A DNA stretch of 64,000 nucleotides from contig OY970178.1 in the NCBI GenBank assembly GCA_963707915.1, forward strand, positions 128,001 through 192,000, given 5' to 3'. A program made the translations under genes and the position numbers. A model generated the notes under the pieces. The model was not told the origin of the DNA. It did not search any database and saw only the letters and a program-made list of their open reading frames with translations. Of the stretch, positions 6,323-36,947 are shown one piece after another (within the stretch, counting starts at the first letter, position 1; each line of letters opens with the position of its first letter). This DNA comes from Candidatus Eiseniibacteriota bacterium (lineage in GTDB: Bacteria > Eisenbacteria > RBG-16-71-46).

Positions 6323-9300
6323 ATGATGGACTTCCGTCGGAAAAGCGTAACGCTGGTGGCGCTGGCGCTCGCCGCGCTGGCCATCGGCGCGGTCACTTCC
6401 CGGGCCGAAACCCGGGTCTCGAGGGCCGTGCGACGCGTCCGCCCCATGTCGGTCGAGGCGGTTTCGTCGCTCGACAATCAACGGCGCGTCGACGTCAACA
6501 GCATCAACATGTTCGTGACCAACTTCGGGTCGTGGGCCTACGACCTCGGCACCGGGAACGCCGGGCTGATCTACCCGAAGGGCACGAACAAGACCGCGAT
6601 CTTCGCCTCCGGCCCCTGGTTCGGGGCCACCGTGAACGGGGAGGTGCGGACCGAGGTCGGGGAGTACTCGCAGGAGTACAACCCGGGTGTGATCCTGCGC
6701 GAGGGCCCGTGGTCGGTGAGCGCCGACCCCGCGGACCTCGGGATGCTCAAGGTCTGGGACGACCCGGACCGCCCGGAGTACATGGTCTACAAGATGGCGC
6801 GCTGGACCGGGGACCCGTTGGACTCCACGCACCTCGAGCGGACGGTGCCGGCCAACGACCCGAACTCGACCGACCCCCTCGTGCACCATTCGTGGAACGA
6901 GTACATGACGGGGGCGGTGCCGCGGGGGGCGCCGTGGAAGATGTACCGGCTCCCGAACCCCGCTTCTCCCGGCGACAGCCTGGACGTGCCCGGCCCGGAC
7001 GTGGCCGGTGACCAGATGCTCTGGAGCGTCTACAACGATGCCGCGTTCTCGCGCCACACCAACGAGGCCGGCAAGTCGCTGCCGCTCGGGCTGGAGATCC
7101 GCCAGACCACGTTCGCCTTCGACCGGCAGGGTGCCCTGGGCAACGCGATCTTCGTGAAGCTCGAGATCATCCACCCCGAATTGCCGGCCCCGGCGGACAC
7201 CGTCTACCGCACGACGCTCGAGAACATGTACGTCTCGCTCTGGGCGGACCCGGACCTGGGCGGCGCGACCGACGACCTGGTGGGCTGCGACACGCTGCTG
7301 TCGCTCGGGTACTGCTACAACGCCACGAACAACGATCAGCTCTACGGCACGACGCCGCCGGCGGTGGGCTACGACTTCTTCCTCGGCCCGAAGCCCTTCC
7401 ACGGCGCCACGACGACGCTGCCGATGACGTCCTTCAACAAGTACATCAACGGCACCGACCCGGCCTCGTCCGAAGCGACCTACAACTACATGCAGGGCCT
7501 CCAGGCGGACGGGACCGACCTGATCAACCCGATCACGGGGCTGCCCACGCGCTTCTTCGATTCGGGCGACCCGGTCAAGGGCACGGGCTGGATCGACGGC
7601 AATGCGGCCGACAAGCGGATGATGCTGTCGTCGGGGCCGTTCTCCATGTCGCCGGGCGACACCCAGGTCGTGGTCGGCGCCATCGTCATCGCGCGGGGCA
7701 GCGACCGGCTGGCGTCCGTGACCGGCCTGAAGTTCTACGACACGTTCGCGCAGGCCGCATTCGACTCGAACTTCAACCTCCCGCCGCCTCCGCCCCAGCC
7801 GAAGGTCACGACGAAGGTCGCGCACCAGGAGATCCAGTTCTGCTGGGACACCGGCTCGTGGAGCAACTACGTCGCGCCGCCCGGATACAAGTTCGAGGGC
7901 TACGTCGTGTACCAGGGGACGTCGAAGACCGGGCCATGGAAGCGCCTGGTGACCTACGACCTCGTGGATTCGATCGGCGTCGTGCGTGACACGGTGTTCG
8001 ACACCACCACCGGGCAGCTCATCACCGACTACCCGGTGGCCTTCGGCGGCGACAACGGCCTCGCCTACTGCTACAGCACGACCCAGGACGCGATCGGCGG
8101 GGGCACGCTGAGGGACGCGACGCCCTACTACTTCGCCGTCACGGCGTACGCGGTGCCCGCGGACAAGGGGTGCCTCGACGGCACCGCGCTCCCCGGGGCG
8201 CTGTGCCCGGAGCCGCGGGTGCTCGAGACCTCGCAGCAGCCGATCACGGTGATCCCGCAGCGGCCGGCGCTGGGGACCGATCCCGCGACGGCGGCGGCCG
8301 TGATGACCCACCTGCGGATCGACACCTCCAAGCCGCCGGGTACGGACGACGTCCAGTTCAACGTGGTGGCGCCGGAGCTCGTGACGGGGCACATCTACAA
8401 GGTCTTCTACACCCCGACCGAGCGGCCGCCGGTGACGATCGCGGTGGGGCCGGACACCGCCACGGTGCTCTTCGCGTGGAACGTGCAGGATTCGACCACC
8501 GGCGCGATGCTCCTCACCAACCAGCTGAACCGGCGGGGGGACCTGGACTACCAGGTGGTGGACGGGATCCAGATGATGGACATCGGCAAGTACTTCCCCG
8601 CGCTGCAGTCGGTCGCGTATTTCGACAACAAGGGGGCTTCGAGCACGGCGCTCGAAGGCGTCAACTTCGGGCTCGGCCTCTTCGGCGGCGGCGCGGACTA
8701 CGCCTTCAACTTCTTCGGCAGCACGCTGGACCCGATCGCCATGCCGGACTCCTTCACCTCGGTGGAGGTCCGCTTCAGCCACAGCGCCACGCAGAAGGCG
8801 TACCGGTTCCTCCGCCGCGAGATGCTGGACGGCTCGGCGCCGGCAGTCGGGCGCGGGTACATCTACGGCGGGTTCCACCCGTGCAACTTCCAGGTCTGGG
8901 ACGTGACCAACAACGTGCAGCTCGACGCGGCATTCCTGGAGAAGGTGGCCACCGCCTCGGATGGAACGATCCTGCCGCCGGCACAGCAGCCGGCGACCTT
9001 CGACTCGACCTGGCGGACGACGGCGGACGACGTCGGGGACCGCGAGTACCTGTTCGTCTACCGGCGGCCGTACAGCGATGCGCCCAAGGCCGAGCTGGCC
9101 GTGGACGCCAGCGTGTACGACGGGAACGTCCCCGTGCTCTACACGGTGGGCCCCAAGCTCCACGACGCCACGTCGGTGGTCGAGGACGGATCCACGCTGC
9201 AGCTCCTGTACGCGAACCCCTCGACCTCGAACGATGTCTACGTGTTCAACACCTCGAAGCTGGTGCGGGGCGACGCCGGGCTCGCGAAGGCGGGGCTTGA

Positions 9301-26984: not shown

Positions 26985-27893
26985 ATGAGAACGTCATTCC
27001 GACTCGTCGTCTTCGCTGCGGGACTCGCGCTCCTCGCACTCGTCCCCGGCGCCGCCTCTGCGAAGCTCCGCGTAGCCGCATCCCTCACCGATCTCGCCTC
27101 GATCGCCAGCTCTGTCGGTGGCGACCAGGTCGAGGTCTTCGCCATCGCCCGCCCCAATGCCGATGTCCATCGCGTGGAGGTGCTGCCCTCCTACATGGTG
27201 CAGGTCTCGCGCGCCGACCTCTACCTCAAGGTCGGGCTCGGGCTCGACCAGTGGGCCGACGGCATCATCGACGGCTCGCGCAACGCGAAGCTCAAGGTGC
27301 TCGACTGCGGCGCGGGGATCACGCCGCTCGAGAAGCCCACGAACGTCAACGCCTCGATGGGCGACGTGCACCCGTTCGGCAATCCGCACTACTGGCTCGA
27401 CCCGCGCAACGGCGTCATCGTCGCGCGTGAAGTCGCGGAGGAGCTGGCCCGGCTCGATCCCGCGCACTCGGCCGACTACGGCGCACGAGCCGAGGCTTTC
27501 GCGAAGGAGGCGGAGGCCGCCTACGAGCGCGGGCAGCAACTCGTGGCGAAGCTGCCGGTCCGGACCGTATTCACCTACCACGCCTCCTGGATCTACCTCG
27601 GCCACGCCTACGGGATCGAGATCGCAGCCACGGCCGAACCGGTGCCGGGGATCCCGCCCACCGCGAAGCACCTCCAGGAGCTCGTGAACATCGCGAAGCA
27701 GCGTGGCGTGACGACGCTGATCCAGGAACCCTACTTCTCGGACGATGCCGGGAAGTTCCTGGCCCGTGAGGCCGGGGTGCACGTGATCAAGGTCTCGCCG
27801 TCGTGCGACGGCCCGCAGGCCGGCAGCTACCTCGCCCACTTCGATGCCGTGCTCGGCCTGCTGGCCGGCGCTAGCCCAAAGGCCCGCCCATGA
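26985..27893 (+). CDS. Metal ABC transporter substrate-binding protein (ZnuA/TroA family)
   Basis: DVH, GDVHPFGNPHYWLDP, TYHASW, EPVPGIPPT. Confidence 0.9.
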   Translation: MRTSFRLVVFAAGLALLALVPGAASAKLRVAASLTDLASIASSVGGDQVEVFAIARPNADVHRVEVLPSYMVQVSRADLYLKVGLGLDQWADGIIDGSRNAKLKVLDCGAGITPLEKPTNVNASMGDVHPFGNPHYWLDPRNGVIVAREVAEELARLDPAHSADYGARAEAFAKEAEAAYERGQQLVAKLPVRTVFTYHASWIYLGHAYGIEIAATAEPVPGIPPTAKHLQELVNIAKQRGVTTLIQEPYFSDDAGKFLAREAGVHVIKVSPSCDGPQAGSYLAHFDAVLGLLAGASPKARP

Positions 27894-28766
27894 CGGCTGC
27901 ATTGTCGTTGCCGTTCTTCTGGACCGCACTGGTCGCCAGCCTCGTGCTGGCCGGGATCCACGCTTACCTGGGGTTTCACATCGTGCGGCGCGGGGTCATC
28001 TTCGTTGACCTCGCGCTGGCGCAGATGGCGGCGCTCGGGGTCGCGCTCGCGCTGGTGCTGCGGGTGAACGAGAACGAGGTCCTTCACCTACCTGATCGCG
28101 CTCGGCATGACCTTCGTGGGTGCCGCGGCCTTCGCCTGGCTGCGCGGACAGGAACGGCGGGCGCCGCTCGAGGCCTTCATCGGGATCGTCTTCGCCACCG
28201 CGCAGGCCGCGGTGTTCCTGGTGCTGGAGAAGAGCCCCTCGGGTCCCGAGCACCTCAAGGAGACGCTGGCGGGCAGTCTCTTCACCGTCGACCCGCACCA
28301 CGTGCTCAAGACCGCGGTGCTCTACGCCGTCGTCGGGCTGGCGCACTTCCTGTTGCGCAAGCCGTTCTTCGAGATCACCAACGACCCGAAGGGGGCCGAG
28401 GGCCGCGGTCGCCGGCTGTTCTGGTGGGACCTCGCCTTCTACGGCATCTTCGGCTTCGTCGTCACCTCGAGCGTGCAGATCGCCGGGGTGCTGCTGGTGT
28501 TCGGGCTGCTGGTCATCCCCGCAGTGGCCGGACTGATGGCGACGCAGCGCACCGGGCCGGCACTGGCGATCGGCTGGGTGTTCGGGTTCACTGGAAGCCT
28601 CCTCGGCCTGCTCGGTTCGATCCAGTTCGATCTGCCGGCAGCACCGAGCATCCTGGTCTCGTTGACCGTGCTGCTCTTCGTGCTGGGGGTAGCCGTGACT
28701 CTGCGTCAACGGATTGCGGTCCAGCGCCAGATGCGCGCGGGGGGCAGCGAGCGGGCGGGCGCTTGA
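27890..28766 (+). CDS. Metal ABC transporter permease (ZnuB/ABC-3 family), indel near 28085
   Basis: GIHAYLGFHIVRRGVIFVDLALAQMAALG, EAFIG, SSVQIAGVLLVFGLLVIPA. Confidence 0.85.
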
Positions 28767-30776: not shown

Positions 30777-31205
30777 CTAGCGGTGGGACTCCGTTCCCGT
30801 CGTCGTCATGGTCAGCTTTCCAGGTTTCACACCCTTGACTCTGGTCAGGCGATCCGCAAGCTCCCTGACCGCGCCGGCCGGACCTCGAACGGCGAGGACC
30901 TCCATGCAGTTGTGGTGGTCGAGGTGGACATGCATCGCGGCGATGATCGTCTTGCCGTGATCGTGCTGAATGCCGGTCAGTTGCGCCTGGATGTTGCGCT
31001 TGTGATGGTCGAACACCAGCGTCACATTGCCGGCAATCTCGCGCGTGCCGGTCTGGGCGCGATGCTCCACGAGCTGCCCGCGCACCATGTCGGCGACTGC
31101 CTGGGAGCGGCTCTCGTAGCCCTTGGCCTTGCGCATGACGTCGAGCCGTTCCATCAGCGCGGCCGGCATCGACACGCTGAAGCGCCTGAGCAGAGTCGTC
31201 TTCAC
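30777..31205 (-). CDS. nikR: Nickel-responsive regulator NikR
   Basis: RRFSVS ribbon, GYESRSQAVAD, VFDHH, QH, HVHLDHHNCMEV. Confidence 0.92.
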   Translation of the reverse strand: MKTTLLRRFSVSMPAALMERLDVMRKAKGYESRSQAVADMVRGQLVEHRAQTGTREIAGNVTLVFDHHKRNIQAQLTGIQHDHGKTIIAAMHVHLDHHNCMEVLAVRGPAGAVRELADRLTRVKGVKPGKLTMTTTGTESHR

Positions 31206-31320
31206 GGTGCTGCCTCCGGCGCATTAGGCAACACGAAGAAGAGTAGGCGGTCAAACGCGGCGCCAGCGAAGCGCGTGGGAACGCTCGTCGAGGTACGGAC
31301 TGTTCCATCTCATCGCTAGG

Positions 31321-31494
31321 GGTCCGTGGCGGACGGAAGCCGGGGCACGGGATCCTTACGAGCGCCTGGACGCGGAGGGCGTCGCGATCCACGTCCAACG
31401 CGACGTGCTCACCGTCCTCCAGAGCCCAAAGCGGCTGACCTTCGCCTTCGGTAGCTTCGGCCGCTGCGTGCTTCGCCTCGAAGCCGCTCCGTAG
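31321..31494 (+). pseudogene. C-terminal remnant paralog of the candidate selenoprotein at 36177
   Basis: YERLDAEGVAIHVQRDVL...RLTFAFGSFGRCVLRL aligns with YEGLEGDGLAVHVHRDVL...RLSFAFGKFGRCWLRL; N-terminal half absent, upstream in-frame TAG at 31225. Confidence 0.7.
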
Positions 31495-32967: not shown

Positions 32968-34017
32968 TCAAATCAGCCAATTGAACAGGTAGCCGACGGC
33001 GATGATCCCGAGGCTGACCACGCCGAGGAAGACGGCGATGAGCCGGGGGCGGAGGACCTTGCGAAGGATGATGGTCTCGGGCAGCGAGAGCCCGATCACG
33101 GCCATCATGAAGGCGAGGACGGTGCCCAGCGCGGCGCCCTTGCCGAGGAGCGCCTGGACGACCGGGATGATGCCGGCAGCGTTGGAGTACATCGGCACGC
33201 CAATCAGGACCGCCAGCGGCACCGACCACCACGCGCCCTTGCCCATGACGCGGGCCATGAAGTTCTCCGGCACCCAGCCGTGGATCGCCGCACCGACGGC
33301 GATGCCGACGAGTACGTACGGCCAGACCTTGCCGACGATGTCCTGCACCGCCTCGACGCCCATGCGCAGGCGGATGTCCCAGCCAAGGCTCGAGGCGTCG
33401 TAGCCGACTTCGGAGACCGCGGTGTAGACCCACGGCTCGACGTGACGTTCCATGTGCAGCCGCCCGATCACCCAGCCGGAGACGATCGCGATCACCAGGC
33501 CGGTGCCGACGTAAAGGGCCGCAACCTTCCAGCCGAACAGGCCGAACAGCAGGGCCAAGGCGATCTCGTTGACCATCGGGGCCGAGATCAGGAACGAGAA
33601 GGTCACGCCAAGCGGCACCCCGGCGGTGAGGAAGCCGATGAAGAGCGGCACGGCTGAGCAGGAGCAGAACGGGGTGACCACGCCCAGGCCCGCGGCCATC
33701 AGGTTGCCCACGGACTCCTTGCGGCCCGCCAGCATCGCCCGCGTCTTCTCTGGCGTGAAGAACGAGCGGATCACCCCGACGACGAAGACGACGAGCGTTA
33801 GGAGCATCAACACCTTCGGTGTGTCGAAGATGAAGAACTCCAACGCGGAGCCGAAGTGGGTCGACGGCGAAGCGCGCAACACGGTGTATGCCAGCCAGCG
33901 GGAGAGGGGGCCGAGGGCGGCATAGAGCGCCACCCAGGCGAGAAGACCCAAGGCGACACGCCAGGGCAGCGGCAGGCTACGGCGGGTCTTGGTGCGAGGT
34001 GGCGCCGCCTCGCTCAT
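32968..34017 (-). CDS. arsP: ArsP/DUF318 permease
   Basis: [40 protein letters not shown]. Confidence 0.85.
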
Positions 34018-35162
34018 GAGTGCGCCCCTTCGGCGCGCTGCGCCAAGGCAGGCGTCAGCTCGAGGTGGAAGTAGCGCCGCCGGAACCACAGCGCCACGTT
34101 CACCAGCCCGATGAGGGCAGGCACCTCGACCAGCGGCCCGATGACAGCGGCAAAGGCGGCGCCGTGGTGGATGCCGAAGGTCGCCACCGCCACCGCGATG
34201 GCCAGCTCGAAGTTGTTCGACGCTGCCGTGAACGAAAGGGTCGCCGACTGGGGGTAGTTCGCGCCCACCCATTTGCTCATGAAGAACGAGACCACGAACA
34301 TGACCACGAAGTAGATGAGCAACGGGATGGCGATGCGCACCACGTCGAAAGGCAACTGGACGATCTTCTCGCCCTTGAGCGAGAACATCACGACGATGGT
34401 GAAGAGCAGGGCGATGAGCGTGATCGGGCTGATCTTCGGGATGAAGCGGCGCTGGTACCAGTCCTTCCCCTTCGCCGCGATCAGGCTGAAGCGGGTGATG
34501 ATCCCGGCGAGGAAGGGGATGCCGAGGTAGATGAAGACGCTCTTCGCGATCTCGGCCATCGTGATGTTCACGGCCACACCCTTCAGGCCGAACCACGCCG
34601 GCGCGAGCGTGATGAAGACGTAGGCGTAGACCGAGAAGAAGAGCACCTGGAAGATCGAGTTGAACGCGACCAGGCCCGCGCAGTACTCGCTATCACCCTT
34701 TGCGAGGTCGTTCCAGACGATGACCATGGCGATGCAGCGCGCCAGGCCGATCAGGATGAGGCCAACCATGTACTCGGGCTTGTCCCGCAGGAACAGGACC
34801 GCCAGGCCGAACATCAGGATCGGTCCGACCACCCAGTTCTGGACCAGCGAGAGTGCCAGCACACGGCCGTTGCGGAAGACGCGGCCCATCTCCTCGTAGC
34901 GGACCTTCGCCAGCGGTGGGTACATCATCAGGATCAGGCCGACGGCGATGGGTATGGAAGTGGTGCCGACGTTGAAGCGATTGATGAACGGCACGATCTG
35001 CGGGAACAGGAAGCCCCCGCCGACCCCGATGGCCATGGCGAGGAAGATCCACAGGGTGAGGAAGCGATCGAGGAACGAGAGCCGACCGACAATGCCGCCA
35101 GTGCTCCGGTTCTTGTCATGGCCTGTCACGACATCCTCCGTGGTTGCGGCATTCCGCGTCAT
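34014..35162 (-). CDS. acr3: Acr3 arsenite efflux transporter
   Basis: [49 protein letters not shown]. Confidence 0.95.
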
Positions 35163-35596
35163 CGTCCTTGCTCCTTCTTGTTGCCACCGGGTCGCGTCGC
35201 TTCATCCATGAGCCCATGGACCAGTTGCTCGATGCGGTCACGTACGTGCCGGAAGCCGTCGTCGTCGAGAGTCTTGGGATCGGGCAGATCCCAGTCCACG
35301 CGATGGCGCGTCGGCAGCCACGGGCAGGCGTCTCCGCAGCCCATGGTCACGACGTAGTCCCAGGTGATTCCGGTGGGCAAGTCGTCGAGGCCCTTCGACT
35401 GCTGCGGCTTCAGGTCGATTCCCTTCTCGGCCATGAACTGGACCGCGCGCGGGTTCACCTGCCCGGACGGCCGCGAGCCCGCGCTGAAGGCGGCGACGTG
35501 CTCACCTCCGAGAGCCCGGGCGAAGCCCTCCGCCATCTGGGAGCGGCAGGAGTTCTCGATGCAGACGAAGAGCAGGCGGGGGAAGGGCTCAGGCAT
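35159..35596 (-). CDS. arsC: Arsenate reductase ArsC (LMW-PTPase type)
   Basis: [31 protein letters not shown]. Confidence 0.92.
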
Positions 35597-36011
35597 GTTG
35601 CGGCTCCTTCCGCTGAGCGCGGCGCGGGCGTGTCCGGGAGAAGGTGGGAATCCCGGCGGGAGGGAGACTGCAGAGCTGAGTAAGCGGCACGGCGAGGACT
35701 TCCCGAAGGCGCTTGCGATCCGCAAGGATGACTGGGTCCCGGTCGAGGGGGCCACGCAACAGCGCCAGCACCGCGCTGGCGTAATGGTCCGGCGCACCCG
35801 AGAGGCAGTATTCGACCCACTTCCCGTCGCGTCGATCCTCGACGAGTCCGGCCTGCTTGAGAATCGTCAGGTGCTTGGACACGGTGGAGAGGGCCAGGCG
35901 CAGGACTGCCTGGACCTGGCAAACGCAGAGCGGGCGTCCCTCCAGGAGCTTGAGGATCCGTGTGCGGGTAGGGTCGCCGGCCGCCTTGAGGGTGAGTTCG
36001 AGATCGCGCAT
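35589..36011 (-). CDS. arsR: ArsR/SmtB repressor of the ars operon
   Basis: KAAGDPTRTRIL, LCVCQ, STVSKHL, GKWVEY. Confidence 0.9.
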   Translation of the reverse strand: MRDLELTLKAAGDPTRTRILKLLEGRPLCVCQVQAVLRLALSTVSKHLTILKQAGLVEDRRDGKWVEYCLSGAPDHYASAVLALLRGPLDRDPVILADRKRLREVLAVPLTQLCSLPPAGIPTFSRTRPRRAQRKEPQHA

Positions 36012-36028
36012 GGAGTGTCTCCCTTCGT

Positions 36029-36075
36029 CACTTCGTCACATGGCGAAGTGTAGGAGGGACGCCGGGGCTCGTCAA
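36029..36075 (-). promoter_or_regulatory. ars promoter with palindromic operator
   Basis: Minus strand TTGACG-17nt-TACACT; inverted repeat CACTTCG-N8-CGAAGTG (36029-36050) overlapping the -10/TSS. Confidence 0.75.
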
Positions 36076-36176
36076 GTCACCTCCTCCGATCGCTGTGAAT
36101 GCGTGGGCGGTCATGGTCGGCCGTCAGATCCGCAACCAACCCAGCGGTCGGGCTCAGCTTGTGGCATAGTAAAGCC

Positions 36177-36470
36177 ATGCGTCAGGCTCATTTCGAGTCC
36201 GCGGAAGTGCGGGGCTACATCGGCGCCCGGGGCGGGGTTCTGTGCATTTCGCTCCAGGCGATCATGCACGGCTGATGAAGGGTCGACCTCGGCCCGGTCG
36301 GGTCGCTCGAGATTCCTGAGGACGCGGCCGCCTACGAGGGTCTCGAGGGGGACGGCCTTGCGGTCCACGTGCACCGTGACGTGCTCGCCAAGCTCAAGGA
36401 TCCCGCGCGACTCAGCTTTGCCTTCGGAAAGTTCGGGCGCTGCTGGCTTCGTCTCGGAGCCGATCCCTAG
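36177..36470 (+). CDS. Candidate selenoprotein with tandem in-frame UGA-UGA (CC/Se-motif, HesB-like fold)
   Basis: ATG 36177; TGA 36273 and TGA 36276 in frame after HG; frame stays open with high-GC3 codons to TAG 36468; downstream hairpin; paralogous C-half at 31321. Confidence 0.72.
36284..36305 (+). promoter_or_regulatory. SECIS-like hairpin
   Basis: CGACC-[T bulge]-CGGC-CCG-GTCG-GGTCG starting 5 nt after the second UGA, with GGT near the apex. Confidence 0.5.
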
Positions 36471-36518
36471 GCGTTTCCGTGGACTTGGGCACCCCATGAA
36501 CTGCAGCATCCGAGCCGC

Positions 36519-36542
36519 ACTTGAGCCCTAACTTGAGCCCTA
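36519..36542. repeat. 12-bp tandem duplication ACTTGAGCCCTA x2
   Basis: Direct reading, immediately upstream of a -35 box. Confidence 0.8.
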
Positions 36543-36545
36543 ACC

Positions 36546-36581
36546 TTGACGCAGGTGAGTGGGCGAACTAGAATCGCCTAC
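36546..36581 (+). promoter_or_regulatory. Promoter and operator of second arsR operon
   Basis: TTGACG-17nt-TAGAAT; imperfect inverted repeat GTGGGCGA-N7-TCGCCTAC straddling the -10; GTG 7 nt after the -10 suggests a leaderless mRNA. Confidence 0.72.
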
Positions 36582-36947
36582 GTGCATACAGTCGCGAGGT
36601 CCTCACCGGCACAGGTCGAGCGGATGTTTCGCGCGTTCGCCGACCGCACACGGCTCCGGCTCCTTCATCTCCTGAAGGACGGAGAGCTTTGCGTTAGCGA
36701 CATCGTGACGATCCTCGAGGTGCCGCAAGCGCGCGTGTCCCGCCACCTGGGCTACCTGCACCGGGCTGGACTCGTTGACGTCCGCAAGCAGGGGCTCTGG
36801 GCCTTTTACCGGCTCCGCCCGCCAGAATCTCCCTTCCATCAGCGTCTCGTCGGCTGCTTGGGACACTGCTTTGCCGGGGTGCCGGGACTGGCCACTGATT
36901 CCCGCCGCGCCGCCAGGATCAAACGCTCCGGTGGGTGCTGCCCGTGA
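36582..36947 (+). CDS. ArsR/SmtB family regulator with C-terminal CC
   Basis: FRAFADRTRLRLL, ELCVSD, RVSRHL, GLWAFY; ends SGGCCP. Confidence 0.88.
   Translation: MHTVARSSPAQVERMFRAFADRTRLRLLHLLKDGELCVSDIVTILEVPQARVSRHLGYLHRAGLVDVRKQGLWAFYRLRPPESPFHQRLVGCLGHCFAGVPGLATDSRRAARIKRSGGCCP

Follow-up and report, generated by a model that had tools for sequence, protein, structure and literature searches.

Can two consecutive UGA codons in one bacterial reading frame both be decoded as selenocysteine (Sec)? The question is raised by a locus in a 64,000-nucleotide (nt) stretch of DNA, here called the window (70% G+C), from a Candidatus Eiseniibacteriota bacterium whose genome is a single contig of 3.62 Mb; the window covers positions 128001 to 192000 of that contig. 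On the plus strand at 36177..36470, a frame that begins at ATG 36177 runs through 32 sense codons, TGA TGA (36273..36278), and 63 further sense codons to a TAG stop (36468-36470), the TGA pair at codons 33 and 34 being the sole interruption of 97 codons. An earlier note, made from the letters of the window, had proposed a 97-amino-acid (aa) read-through gene here that was absent from the track of open reading frames (ORFs); we checked the frame, and its product is identical to the residues given in that note. The table-11 ORF listing does not contain the gene and returns just two pieces, one of 58 aa that stops at the first TGA and one of 33 aa that starts at GTG 36369. Third-position G+C in this frame is 0.79 to 0.81 on both flanks of the UGA pair. 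Judged from the sequence comparisons described below, 36177-36470 very probably encodes a true selenoprotein of 97 residues with two adjacent Sec residues, U33 and U34 (here called the Sec-Sec protein).

Conservation of the UGA pair and the search for cysteine forms

Adjacent in-frame TGA codons stand at the same column in 25 of the 25 homologous genes that we found (12 genes from the phylum and 13 metagenome loci). A profile search of 206 genomes of the phylum gave matches in 12 genomes, and 11 genomes contain true homologues, amounting to 12 genes in three families of the phylum, each with TGA-TGA at that column. Two other species of the genus carry full-length orthologues (77% and 66% identity) that keep both TGAs. 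The metagenome loci came from a contig scan that was seeded solely on the C-terminal motif RF[HN]FGx[FYM][GC]W (narrow alignment A12) and was blind to the UGA site; G-TGA-TGA was present in all 13 confirmed loci, among which L073 is identical to L074 and one locus comes from a contig of 52% G+C. Identity falls to 20% in the alignment of the 11 full-length proteins (A7, which leaves out a frameshifted copy, copy B, described below), and six columns are invariant (L22, U33, U34, G42, P47, and G87). The earlier note had considered that homologues might end at the first UGA. They do not: in 25 of 25 genes, the two halves share a frame, and each is conserved. In several members, GGAGG precedes the start codon by a few bases, and TGA is also the terminal stop of 6 of 8 distant homologues. 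A genome-wide heuristic scan for in-frame TGAs gave 80 candidates, mainly gene junctions; it recovered copy B and no additional TGA-TGA gene.

Some apparent relatives were set aside. The match in the phylum genome G001 is a 22-residue N-terminal remnant fused to another ORF and counts neither as a homologue nor as a cysteine (Cys) form. At this site (L046; G001:C1:100487-100675, minus strand), the N-terminus-like 22-residue stretch (MRRAHFTSPRLRESIVARGG) opens an unrelated 400-residue ORF; it looks like a leftover of a rearrangement. Among the metagenome candidates, L035 matched the seeded peptide pattern only, and L032 was unrelated.

According to the excerpted text of a 2026 review of prokaryotic selenoproteins (PMC13188914), Cys homologues exist for nearly all selenoprotein families, and the earlier note expected homologues to align C/C, C/U, or U/U to residues 33 and 34. 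The U/U alternative was seen in all 25 genes, and no CC or CU relative was found. When 1.84 billion representative proteins were searched exhaustively with the family profile by HMMER, 38 matched, none of them a full-length relative; all genuine ones were halves or pieces that split at the UGA site, with N-terminal pieces ending at profile position 31 or 32 and no C-terminal half or shorter C-terminal piece beginning before position 36. (One N-terminal piece, P0027, ends "...MRR" instead of "...HG.") On inspection, the long matches P0009 and P0032 proved to be tandem-repeat translations, and a third, P0038, is a repetitive protein matched in 8 stretches. Word-indexed searches, which covered 5.8 billion proteins, returned fragments only and no Cys form, and six-frame searches of the 206 phylum genomes, equally able to see Cys forms, found none. 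The nearest approach to a Cys homologue aligned to the UGA site was a remote profile alignment with the "CC" of IscA-like proteins. A selenoprotein family without Cys relatives is invisible to search methods that depend on Cys/Sec pairs and is always split by gene callers.

Contigs from four public runs were compared with the window over 35900-36900. One DNA contig covers this full stretch with 34 differences, and a second covers 36257-36628. A metatranscriptome contig (X8) covers 36123-36390 on the plus strand and departs from the window at 4 positions (C>A, two C>T, and G>A), and the RNA run X20 covers 36545-36784 only, that is, the second arsR gene (arsR2) and not the Sec-Sec gene. Among the differences listed for these contigs, none falls at 36273-36278: every A>C and A>T in X2 was placed elsewhere, X8 has no A or T changes, and no TGC or TGT was seen at the site among the listed differences, which leave a single A>T of X1 without a position. 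The doubt raised by the earlier note, that the reads might show TGC TGC, thus finds no support in the listed differences. Since these data are contigs, they speak to presence rather than to expression level.

Decoding of the UGA pair

The genome has the machinery that the earlier proposal presupposed, with matches to selA (543.7 bits), selB (345.1 bits, or 370.8 bits with a C-terminal piece), selD (368.1 bits), and tRNA-Sec (71.3 bits). Within the phylum, a selA match was obtained in 190 of the 206 genomes, including all 11 with the Sec-Sec gene (the match in G003 is partial); this tally includes a genome flagged as unpublished, G026, which is absent from alignment A11 and on which no claim about the Sec-Sec gene depends. 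TGA terminates 467 of 769 long codon-biased frames of the genome; it is the main stop codon and so has not been reassigned. The selD gene (G000:C1:534747-536011; L010 and L014) has its own in-frame TGA, in the motif ...VACAG-U-ASKLGP; some 250 nt further downstream comes the gene for tRNA-Sec. Further selenoprotein candidates were seen at G000:C1:549-1928 (plus strand) and G000:C1:3290162-3291586 (plus strand) (L056 and L057); one is an exported thioredoxin-like protein with WAPW-U-HTC, and the other, a UshA-like/multihaem protein, contains DPCG-U-HTPKGG and scores 272.5 bits against NF041198, for which the cut-off is 275.

A putative Sec insertion sequence (SECIS) hairpin follows the UGAs at 36290..36305 on the plus strand (stem 36290-36295/36300-36305, loop GGUC at 36296-36299). 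In subfamily 1 (...GPVGS...), the hairpin reads GCGGCCC-GGUC-GGGUCGC or GGGGCCC-GGUC-GGGUCCC, and in subfamily 2 (...PSGRM...), it reads GCCGUCC-GGUC-GGAUGGC; the sequences differ on both strands between the subfamilies, so the stem has been kept despite different encoded amino acids. We counted pairs over 25 sequences, 17 of them distinct, with one member (G041, which has a 3-nt loop) out of register. For the 7-bp stem with its GGUC loop, 93.3% of 119 pair cells were standard (93 to 94% when a 12-sequence version of the count is considered as well), compared with 76.7% after shuffling (0 of 500 shuffles reached 93.3%) and 30 to 63% when the partners were slid. Three of the seven stem pairs show double-sided changes (CG/GC, 8 versus 8; CG/UA/GC; and GC/CG/UG/UA). 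The hairpin also lies within a zone of suppressed synonymous change in the close orthologues (codons 24 to 47; 36246..36317, plus strand): at amino-acid-invariant codons of four close genes, synonymous differences numbered 1 of 19 in this zone, 4 of 13 in codons 2 to 23, and 14 of 27 in codons 48 to 95.

The distance from the UGAs to the hairpin falls into two classes. Counted from the U of each codon, the loop starts 24 nt after the first UGA and 21 nt after the second in subfamily 1, to which all 13 metagenome loci belong; in subfamily 2, the distances are 28 and 25 nt. Elsewhere in the same genome, the loop of the selD hairpin begins at nt 21 and that of a longer hairpin in the UshA-like selenoprotein gene at nt 29, and both UGAs therefore lie inside the range that this organism seems to use. 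The hairpin resembles the SECIS element of Escherichia coli fdhF: in both, the stem-loop comes right behind the UGA and carries GGUC in its apical loop, about 21 to 24 nt from that codon. Unlike the fdhF element, the hairpin of the Sec-Sec gene would serve two UGAs, its loop lies 4 nt further away in subfamily 2, and its conserved stem shows a G-U wobble and no bulged U. Of the bulged-U hairpin described in the earlier note, the hairpin is confirmed, and the bulged U was not seen.

We propose that the gene at 36177-36470 is intact and encodes a small cytoplasmic selenoprotein. Both of its UGAs would be decoded as Sec via the SelB pathway. SelB carrying Sec-tRNA on the GGUC hairpin would decode the first UGA, and once the ribosome had moved on by one codon, another SelB complex would reuse the same, still unmelted hairpin at the second UGA. 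The two spacing classes, and the range of 21 to 29 nt elsewhere in the genome, point to a tolerant SECIS window. Where UGAs are separated, each can have a hairpin of its own; the Sec-Sec gene has a single hairpin behind both. The multi-Sec protein of eukaryotes, SELENOP, depends on SECIS elements in the 3' untranslated region, a different mechanism. If both UGAs are read as Sec, the gene poses a testable puzzle about SelB, with one hairpin, one SelB bound at a time, and two codons 3 nt apart, and natural sequences in two spacing classes are available to probe the decoding of a double UGA.

Several observations weigh against this interpretation. No Cys homologue was found for the family, and the support that a Cys/Sec pair usually provides is therefore missing. 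In the window copy, the seventh, outermost pair of the stem (36289/36306) is U-C and unpaired. The folding energy of the hairpin was no better than that of shuffled sequence (z 0.09 to -1.10), and the Rfam matches on 36150-36500 (E<=10) comprised one chance small nucleolar RNA match and no SECIS family. The encoded G-P-V-G-S could account for part of the hairpin conservation. A single hairpin cannot be ideally spaced from both UGAs, and in work on E. coli fdhF, the UGA-hairpin spacing was reportedly rather strict. (PMC8659212 contains nothing on bacterial UGA-SECIS spacing.) All members of the family score below the curated cut-off (40 bits) of the one NCBIfam model that matches them, NF041239. 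Among the independent contigs, the A>T of X1 was not placed, 17 differences overall lie beyond those listed, and the X8 RNA contig could be DNA carry-over in an RNA library. Finally, since copy B is frameshifted and the other copy is a fragment, the family would be dispensable or decaying in this genome.

One alternative is that only one UGA is read as Sec, while a near-cognate Trp or Cys tRNA reads the other or the ribosome skips it, which would give a single-Sec protein. This alternative would fit one hairpin at one distance from UGAs that lie 3 nt apart, and in the excerpted Table 1 of PMC13188914, the NF041239 family is given with one Sec. We nonetheless regard it as improbable to a marked degree: both codons are TGA in all 25 genes across deep divergence, whereas TGC, TGT, or TGG would be expected if Cys or Trp were tolerated, and since the frame is the same on both sides, a 3-nt skip is the only possible hop, which nothing supports.

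The genome has two further copies. Copy B (G000:C1:1821553-1821838; L026 1501-1786; L055 about 7054-7339) keeps MHG-TGA-TGA-R and is frameshifted by one additional base after codon 64. Immediately upstream of copy B, the gene for a MacB permease is likewise split (ORFs L055 5053-5862 and 5917-6186), and either assembly indel errors or a decaying locus would explain the two together. The other copy, copy C, lies in the window at 31351..31494 on the plus strand and comprises only the C-terminal residues from about 52 to 97 (61% identity), with no start codon, no UGA site, and no in-frame start from the stop that lies upstream (31225-31227) as far as a GTG at about 31400. The earlier note had described a paralog at 31321-31494. 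The similarity is real, although what is present is a mere C-terminal gene fragment, and the start of 31321 was about 30 nt too early, since the similarity covers only residues 52 to 97 (from about 31351) and no in-frame start lies upstream.

A defective copy B and a fragmentary copy C, and the fact that gene callers cut all relatives at the UGA site, are what one would expect if TGA-TGA were a true tandem stop, whether it separates two short genes (one for a 32-aa peptide, the other for a C-terminal domain with a start of its own) or lies in a dead gene. We consider this explanation highly improbable. GTG 36369 is the next in-frame start after the UGAs, and so the window copy has none before codon 65; the halves share one frame and identical spacing in 25 of 25 genes and are both conserved as protein; they are predicted to form one confident domain with strands from both; and a conserved, covarying hairpin lies downstream in a genome that has the Sec machinery.

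Predicted fold and related families

If both UGAs encode Sec, what kind of protein is made? Pfam gave no match for the read-through protein, for the antisense ORF at 36111-36509, or for an overlapping plus-frame ORF at 35857-36531. The only sequence-family match of the Sec-Sec protein was to NF041239 (29 bits, E 8.6e-7), over residues 9 to 72 (profile 7 to 70) and thus spanning the UGA pair; of the relatives, 9 of 10 match this model at 18.4 to 38.2 bits and 1 does not match. None of the 206 phylum genomes has an NF041239 match above the cut-off. There was no Pfam match to the HesB/IscA model (PF01521) at E<=1, no NCBIfam match except NF041239, and in a search of PDB sequences with the family profile, only chance matches (E>0.5). 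AlphaFold2, given a 40-row alignment, predicted a confident single domain (predicted local distance difference test score, 94.3; predicted template modeling score, 0.84) with U33-U34 at the β-hairpin turn between strands 21-31 and 35-43, and the only consistent fold matches of this model were IscA, SufA, and DsrR. An hhalign comparison with the IscA-like proteins of the genus gave a probability of 22.5% (E 9e-4), and in it, the UU pair lands exactly on "PG-CC-SG." With fold matches on one side and weak or absent sequence matches on the other, "HesB/IscA-like" would apply to the predicted fold and not to family membership. The link to small HesB-like CC/Se motif proteins, which the earlier note had drawn, holds but is weak, NF041239 matching with 29 bits against a cut-off of 40, and the HesB-like label has support at the level of the predicted fold only.

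The resemblance to NF041239, the "CC/Se motif family (seleno)protein" (a hypothetical selenoprotein first predicted in Moorella thermoacetica), extends to size, both proteins being small (about 90 to 100 residues) with the motif in midchain. The two differ in that NF041239 has one Sec in a CxxU motif, as given in the excerpt of PMC13188914, and the Sec-Sec family has two adjacent Sec residues and no Cys forms. Neither PMC2398784 nor PMC5029168 contains a passage on the Moorella protein. We rate the Sec-Sec protein as a selenoprotein distantly related to NF041239, with a mechanistically surprising feature. The HesB-like selenoprotein (TIGR01911, motif UxGP) and IscA/SufA/ErpA (PF01521) appear to share its predicted fold and topology, and IscA has its first ligand Cys at the position of the Sec pair, where the IscA-like proteins of the genus have Cys-Cys. 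The Sec-Sec protein differs from HesB/IscA in lacking the C-terminal CxC, in having two Sec residues rather than one, and in occurring with ars operons rather than isc or suf. The PF01521 IscA-like proteins of the genus (L063 to L069; G000:C1:3087696-3087986) carry "PGCCSG," other A-type carriers of the order carry "GGGCSG," and the matched stretches of the genus copies stop short of the C-terminal CxCG seen in the other copies of the order.

These likenesses raise the possibility that the Sec-Sec protein is real and acts as an A-type carrier does, holding an Fe-S cluster, or selenium or sulfur, for example in selenide delivery. IscA, SufA, and DsrR are the sole consistent fold matches, and the UU pair aligns with the Cys that serves as first cluster ligand in the IscA-like proteins of the genus. 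However, the A-type set of ligand Cys residues is incomplete, with UU in midchain, a single Cys (Cys89) in subfamily 1, none in subfamily 2, and no C-terminal CxC, and the neighbors examined include no isc, suf, or sel genes. We therefore think such a carrier role improbable.

More than one Sec in a short motif of metal or redox type is also found in two-Sec bacterial proteins whose Sec residues are separated, such as the metal-binding protein NF041115 (UxxU), TsoB (UxxxxU), and MbdU. In the excerpted text of PMC13188914, Table 1 comprises 119 families and subfamilies, of which a small subset have 2 or 3 Sec residues, with multi-Sec motifs such as UxxU, UxxxxU, CxU, CU, and the like; no adjacent Sec motif appears among the 119, and Haft and Tolstoy 2025 (mSystems) is named as the source of many new families. 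Full-text literature searches, with Haft and Tolstoy 2025 outside their scope, returned no case of natural tandem, adjacent, consecutive, or vicinal Sec or UGA in bacteria, and the article on deep-Sep (PMC12013277) makes no mention of adjacent or multiple Sec. Should both UGAs be Sec, bacteria would here have their first natural pair of neighboring Sec residues, as far as the literature covered goes.

Arsenic neighborhood and possible functions

The earlier note had placed the gene between a divergent ars operon and a second ArsR operon, and Pfam annotation of the window agrees. On the minus strand, an ArsR-family regulator (35589..36011) is the first gene of the divergent operon and is followed by an LMWP-type ArsC (35159-35797), Acr3 (34014-35162), and then an ArsP_1 permease, Thioredoxin_3, and DsbD_TM. 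Downstream of the Sec-Sec gene on the plus strand, a second ArsR-family regulator (36546..36947) comes before an unknown ORF and genes for a MacB/FtsX permease and an ABC ATPase. The start of this arsR2 gene is probably ATG 36624 (MFRAFADRTRL...) rather than TTG 36546, because a promoter-like site (TTGACG-17-TAGAAT) occupies 36546-36574. At 36020..36075, an inverted repeat with 19-nt arms (36020-36038 and 36041-36059) overlaps a minus-strand promoter-like site (36075-36047); from these consensus matches, the region is the probable ArsR operator/promoter of the divergent operon.

Usable flanks were available for 15 distinct loci (nine more had flanks that were too short), and Acr3, ArsC, or ArsD occurs in the fetched flanks of seven: the window, G003, G004, G066, L070, L071, and L073/74. 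G003 has ArsP_1, Thioredoxin_3, Acr3, and ArsC on one side of the gene and thioredoxin and DsbD_TM on the other. In G004, ArsR, Acr3, ArsP_1, and a CDF transporter lie just upstream, and in G066, the order is ArsP_1, Thioredoxin_3, thioredoxin, DsbD_TM, the Sec-Sec gene, Acr3, and ArsR. The Sec-Sec gene stands directly before arsC in both L071 (arsR-acr3-...-Sec-Sec gene-arsC-ArsP_1) and L070 (acr3-...-Sec-Sec gene-arsC). In L073/74, acr3, an unassigned gene, and a methyltransferase precede the Sec-Sec gene, which abuts the methyltransferase, and ArsD lies further on. The other 8 of the 15 loci show no core ars gene, a count that has to be set against the arsenic part of our interpretation. 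Surroundings without a core ars gene include those of G063 (thioredoxin, DsbD_TM, a multihaem cytochrome, AhpC/Redoxin, the Sec-Sec gene, and MacB-ABC), G073 (a Fer4/HMA protein upstream), L078 (the Sec-Sec gene followed by a methyltransferase), L080 (DsbD_2 followed by the Sec-Sec gene), and L079 (ThiF and AFOR); in G044 and G041, the neighbors are unrelated.

That both residues are Sec, that they have diselenol chemistry, and that the protein has a role with arsenic are points we infer from this combined evidence. The product would fold as an IscA/HesB-like alpha/beta domain in which a β-hairpin carries Sec33-Sec34 at its tip and, in subfamily 1, Cys89 lies near the C terminus; its working site would be the vicinal diselenol (or diselenide). 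A soft-ligand As(III) site could then be formed by the Sec-Sec tip, joined in subfamily 1 by Cys89 and in subfamily 2 by a second protomer. As an accessory of ars operons, the protein would most likely bind arsenite (Se, Se, S) and pass it to efflux or modification proteins; alternatively, it might relay reducing equivalents to them. We advance the arsenite-binding role as plausible but tentative. The fuller hypothesis, that this is an obligate Sec-Sec family in which one SECIS directs two SelB-dependent insertions and in which a vicinal diselenol that lacks any Cys counterpart is the arsenite-capturing site of a new ars-operon chaperone with an IscA-like fold, is one that we put forward still more tentatively. 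The earlier note had suggested As/Sb/Hg binding or redox; the conserved ars-operon neighborhoods lend support to that suggestion, which keeps its conjectural character.

ArsD offers an analogy. It is encoded in ars operons and binds As(III) with a vicinal Cys-Cys pair and a third Cys. The Sec-Sec protein, also found in ars operons, has a vicinal pair plus Cys89 (in subfamily 1), and the analogy to ArsD (PF06953) is one of working only: there is no sequence (Pfam) or fold relationship between the two, no ArsA partner occurs in the neighborhoods examined, and one locus, L074, encodes an ArsD as well as the Sec-Sec protein. The excerpted text of PMC13188914 links several two-Sec bacterial selenoproteins to Hg or As handling. 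A vicinal diselenol would be an unusually strong ligand for soft metals and metalloids, of relevance to arsenic biochemistry and protein engineering, and the Sec-Sec gene is a candidate for a selenium-dependent part of arsenic resistance operons in sediment bacteria.

The same neighborhoods can be read in another way, in which the Sec-Sec protein is real but purely a redox protein that passes diselenide/diselenol electrons to the thioredoxin-dependent ArsC, to TlpA-like thioredoxin/CcdA, or to peroxiredoxin-like neighbors, with no metalloid binding. Thioredoxin-domain and DsbD_TM/CcdA neighbors occur in G003, G004, G066, G063, and L080; an AhpC/Redoxin gene lies directly before the Sec-Sec gene in G063; and LMWP-type ArsC is encoded directly after it in L070 and L071. 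Selenoproteins are mostly redox proteins, as stated in the excerpt of PMC13188914. The predicted fold, however, is not thioredoxin-like. Moreover, a diselenide between adjacent residues is a strained eight-membered ring of very low potential, which would be awkward for turnover. On balance, we find a purely redox role rather unlikely, though by no means negligible.

Some smaller features of the locus complete the description. In four close genes (alignment A1, columns about 45 to 67), a TAnnnT-like hexamer (CATAGT, CATACT, TATGCT, or TACGCT) stands 6 to 7 nt before the ATG, hinting at a leaderless mRNA, yet the X8 RNA contig begins 54 nt upstream. We saw no sigma-70-like promoter for the Sec-Sec gene within 36076-36176 and no intrinsic terminator behind it. 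Just to the left of the gene fragment (copy C), the window encodes a NikR-type regulator (30777-31205, minus strand) and a ZnuA/ABC-3 metal-uptake system (26985-28766, plus strand); with these next to the ars genes, the island mixes Ni/Zn and As functions.

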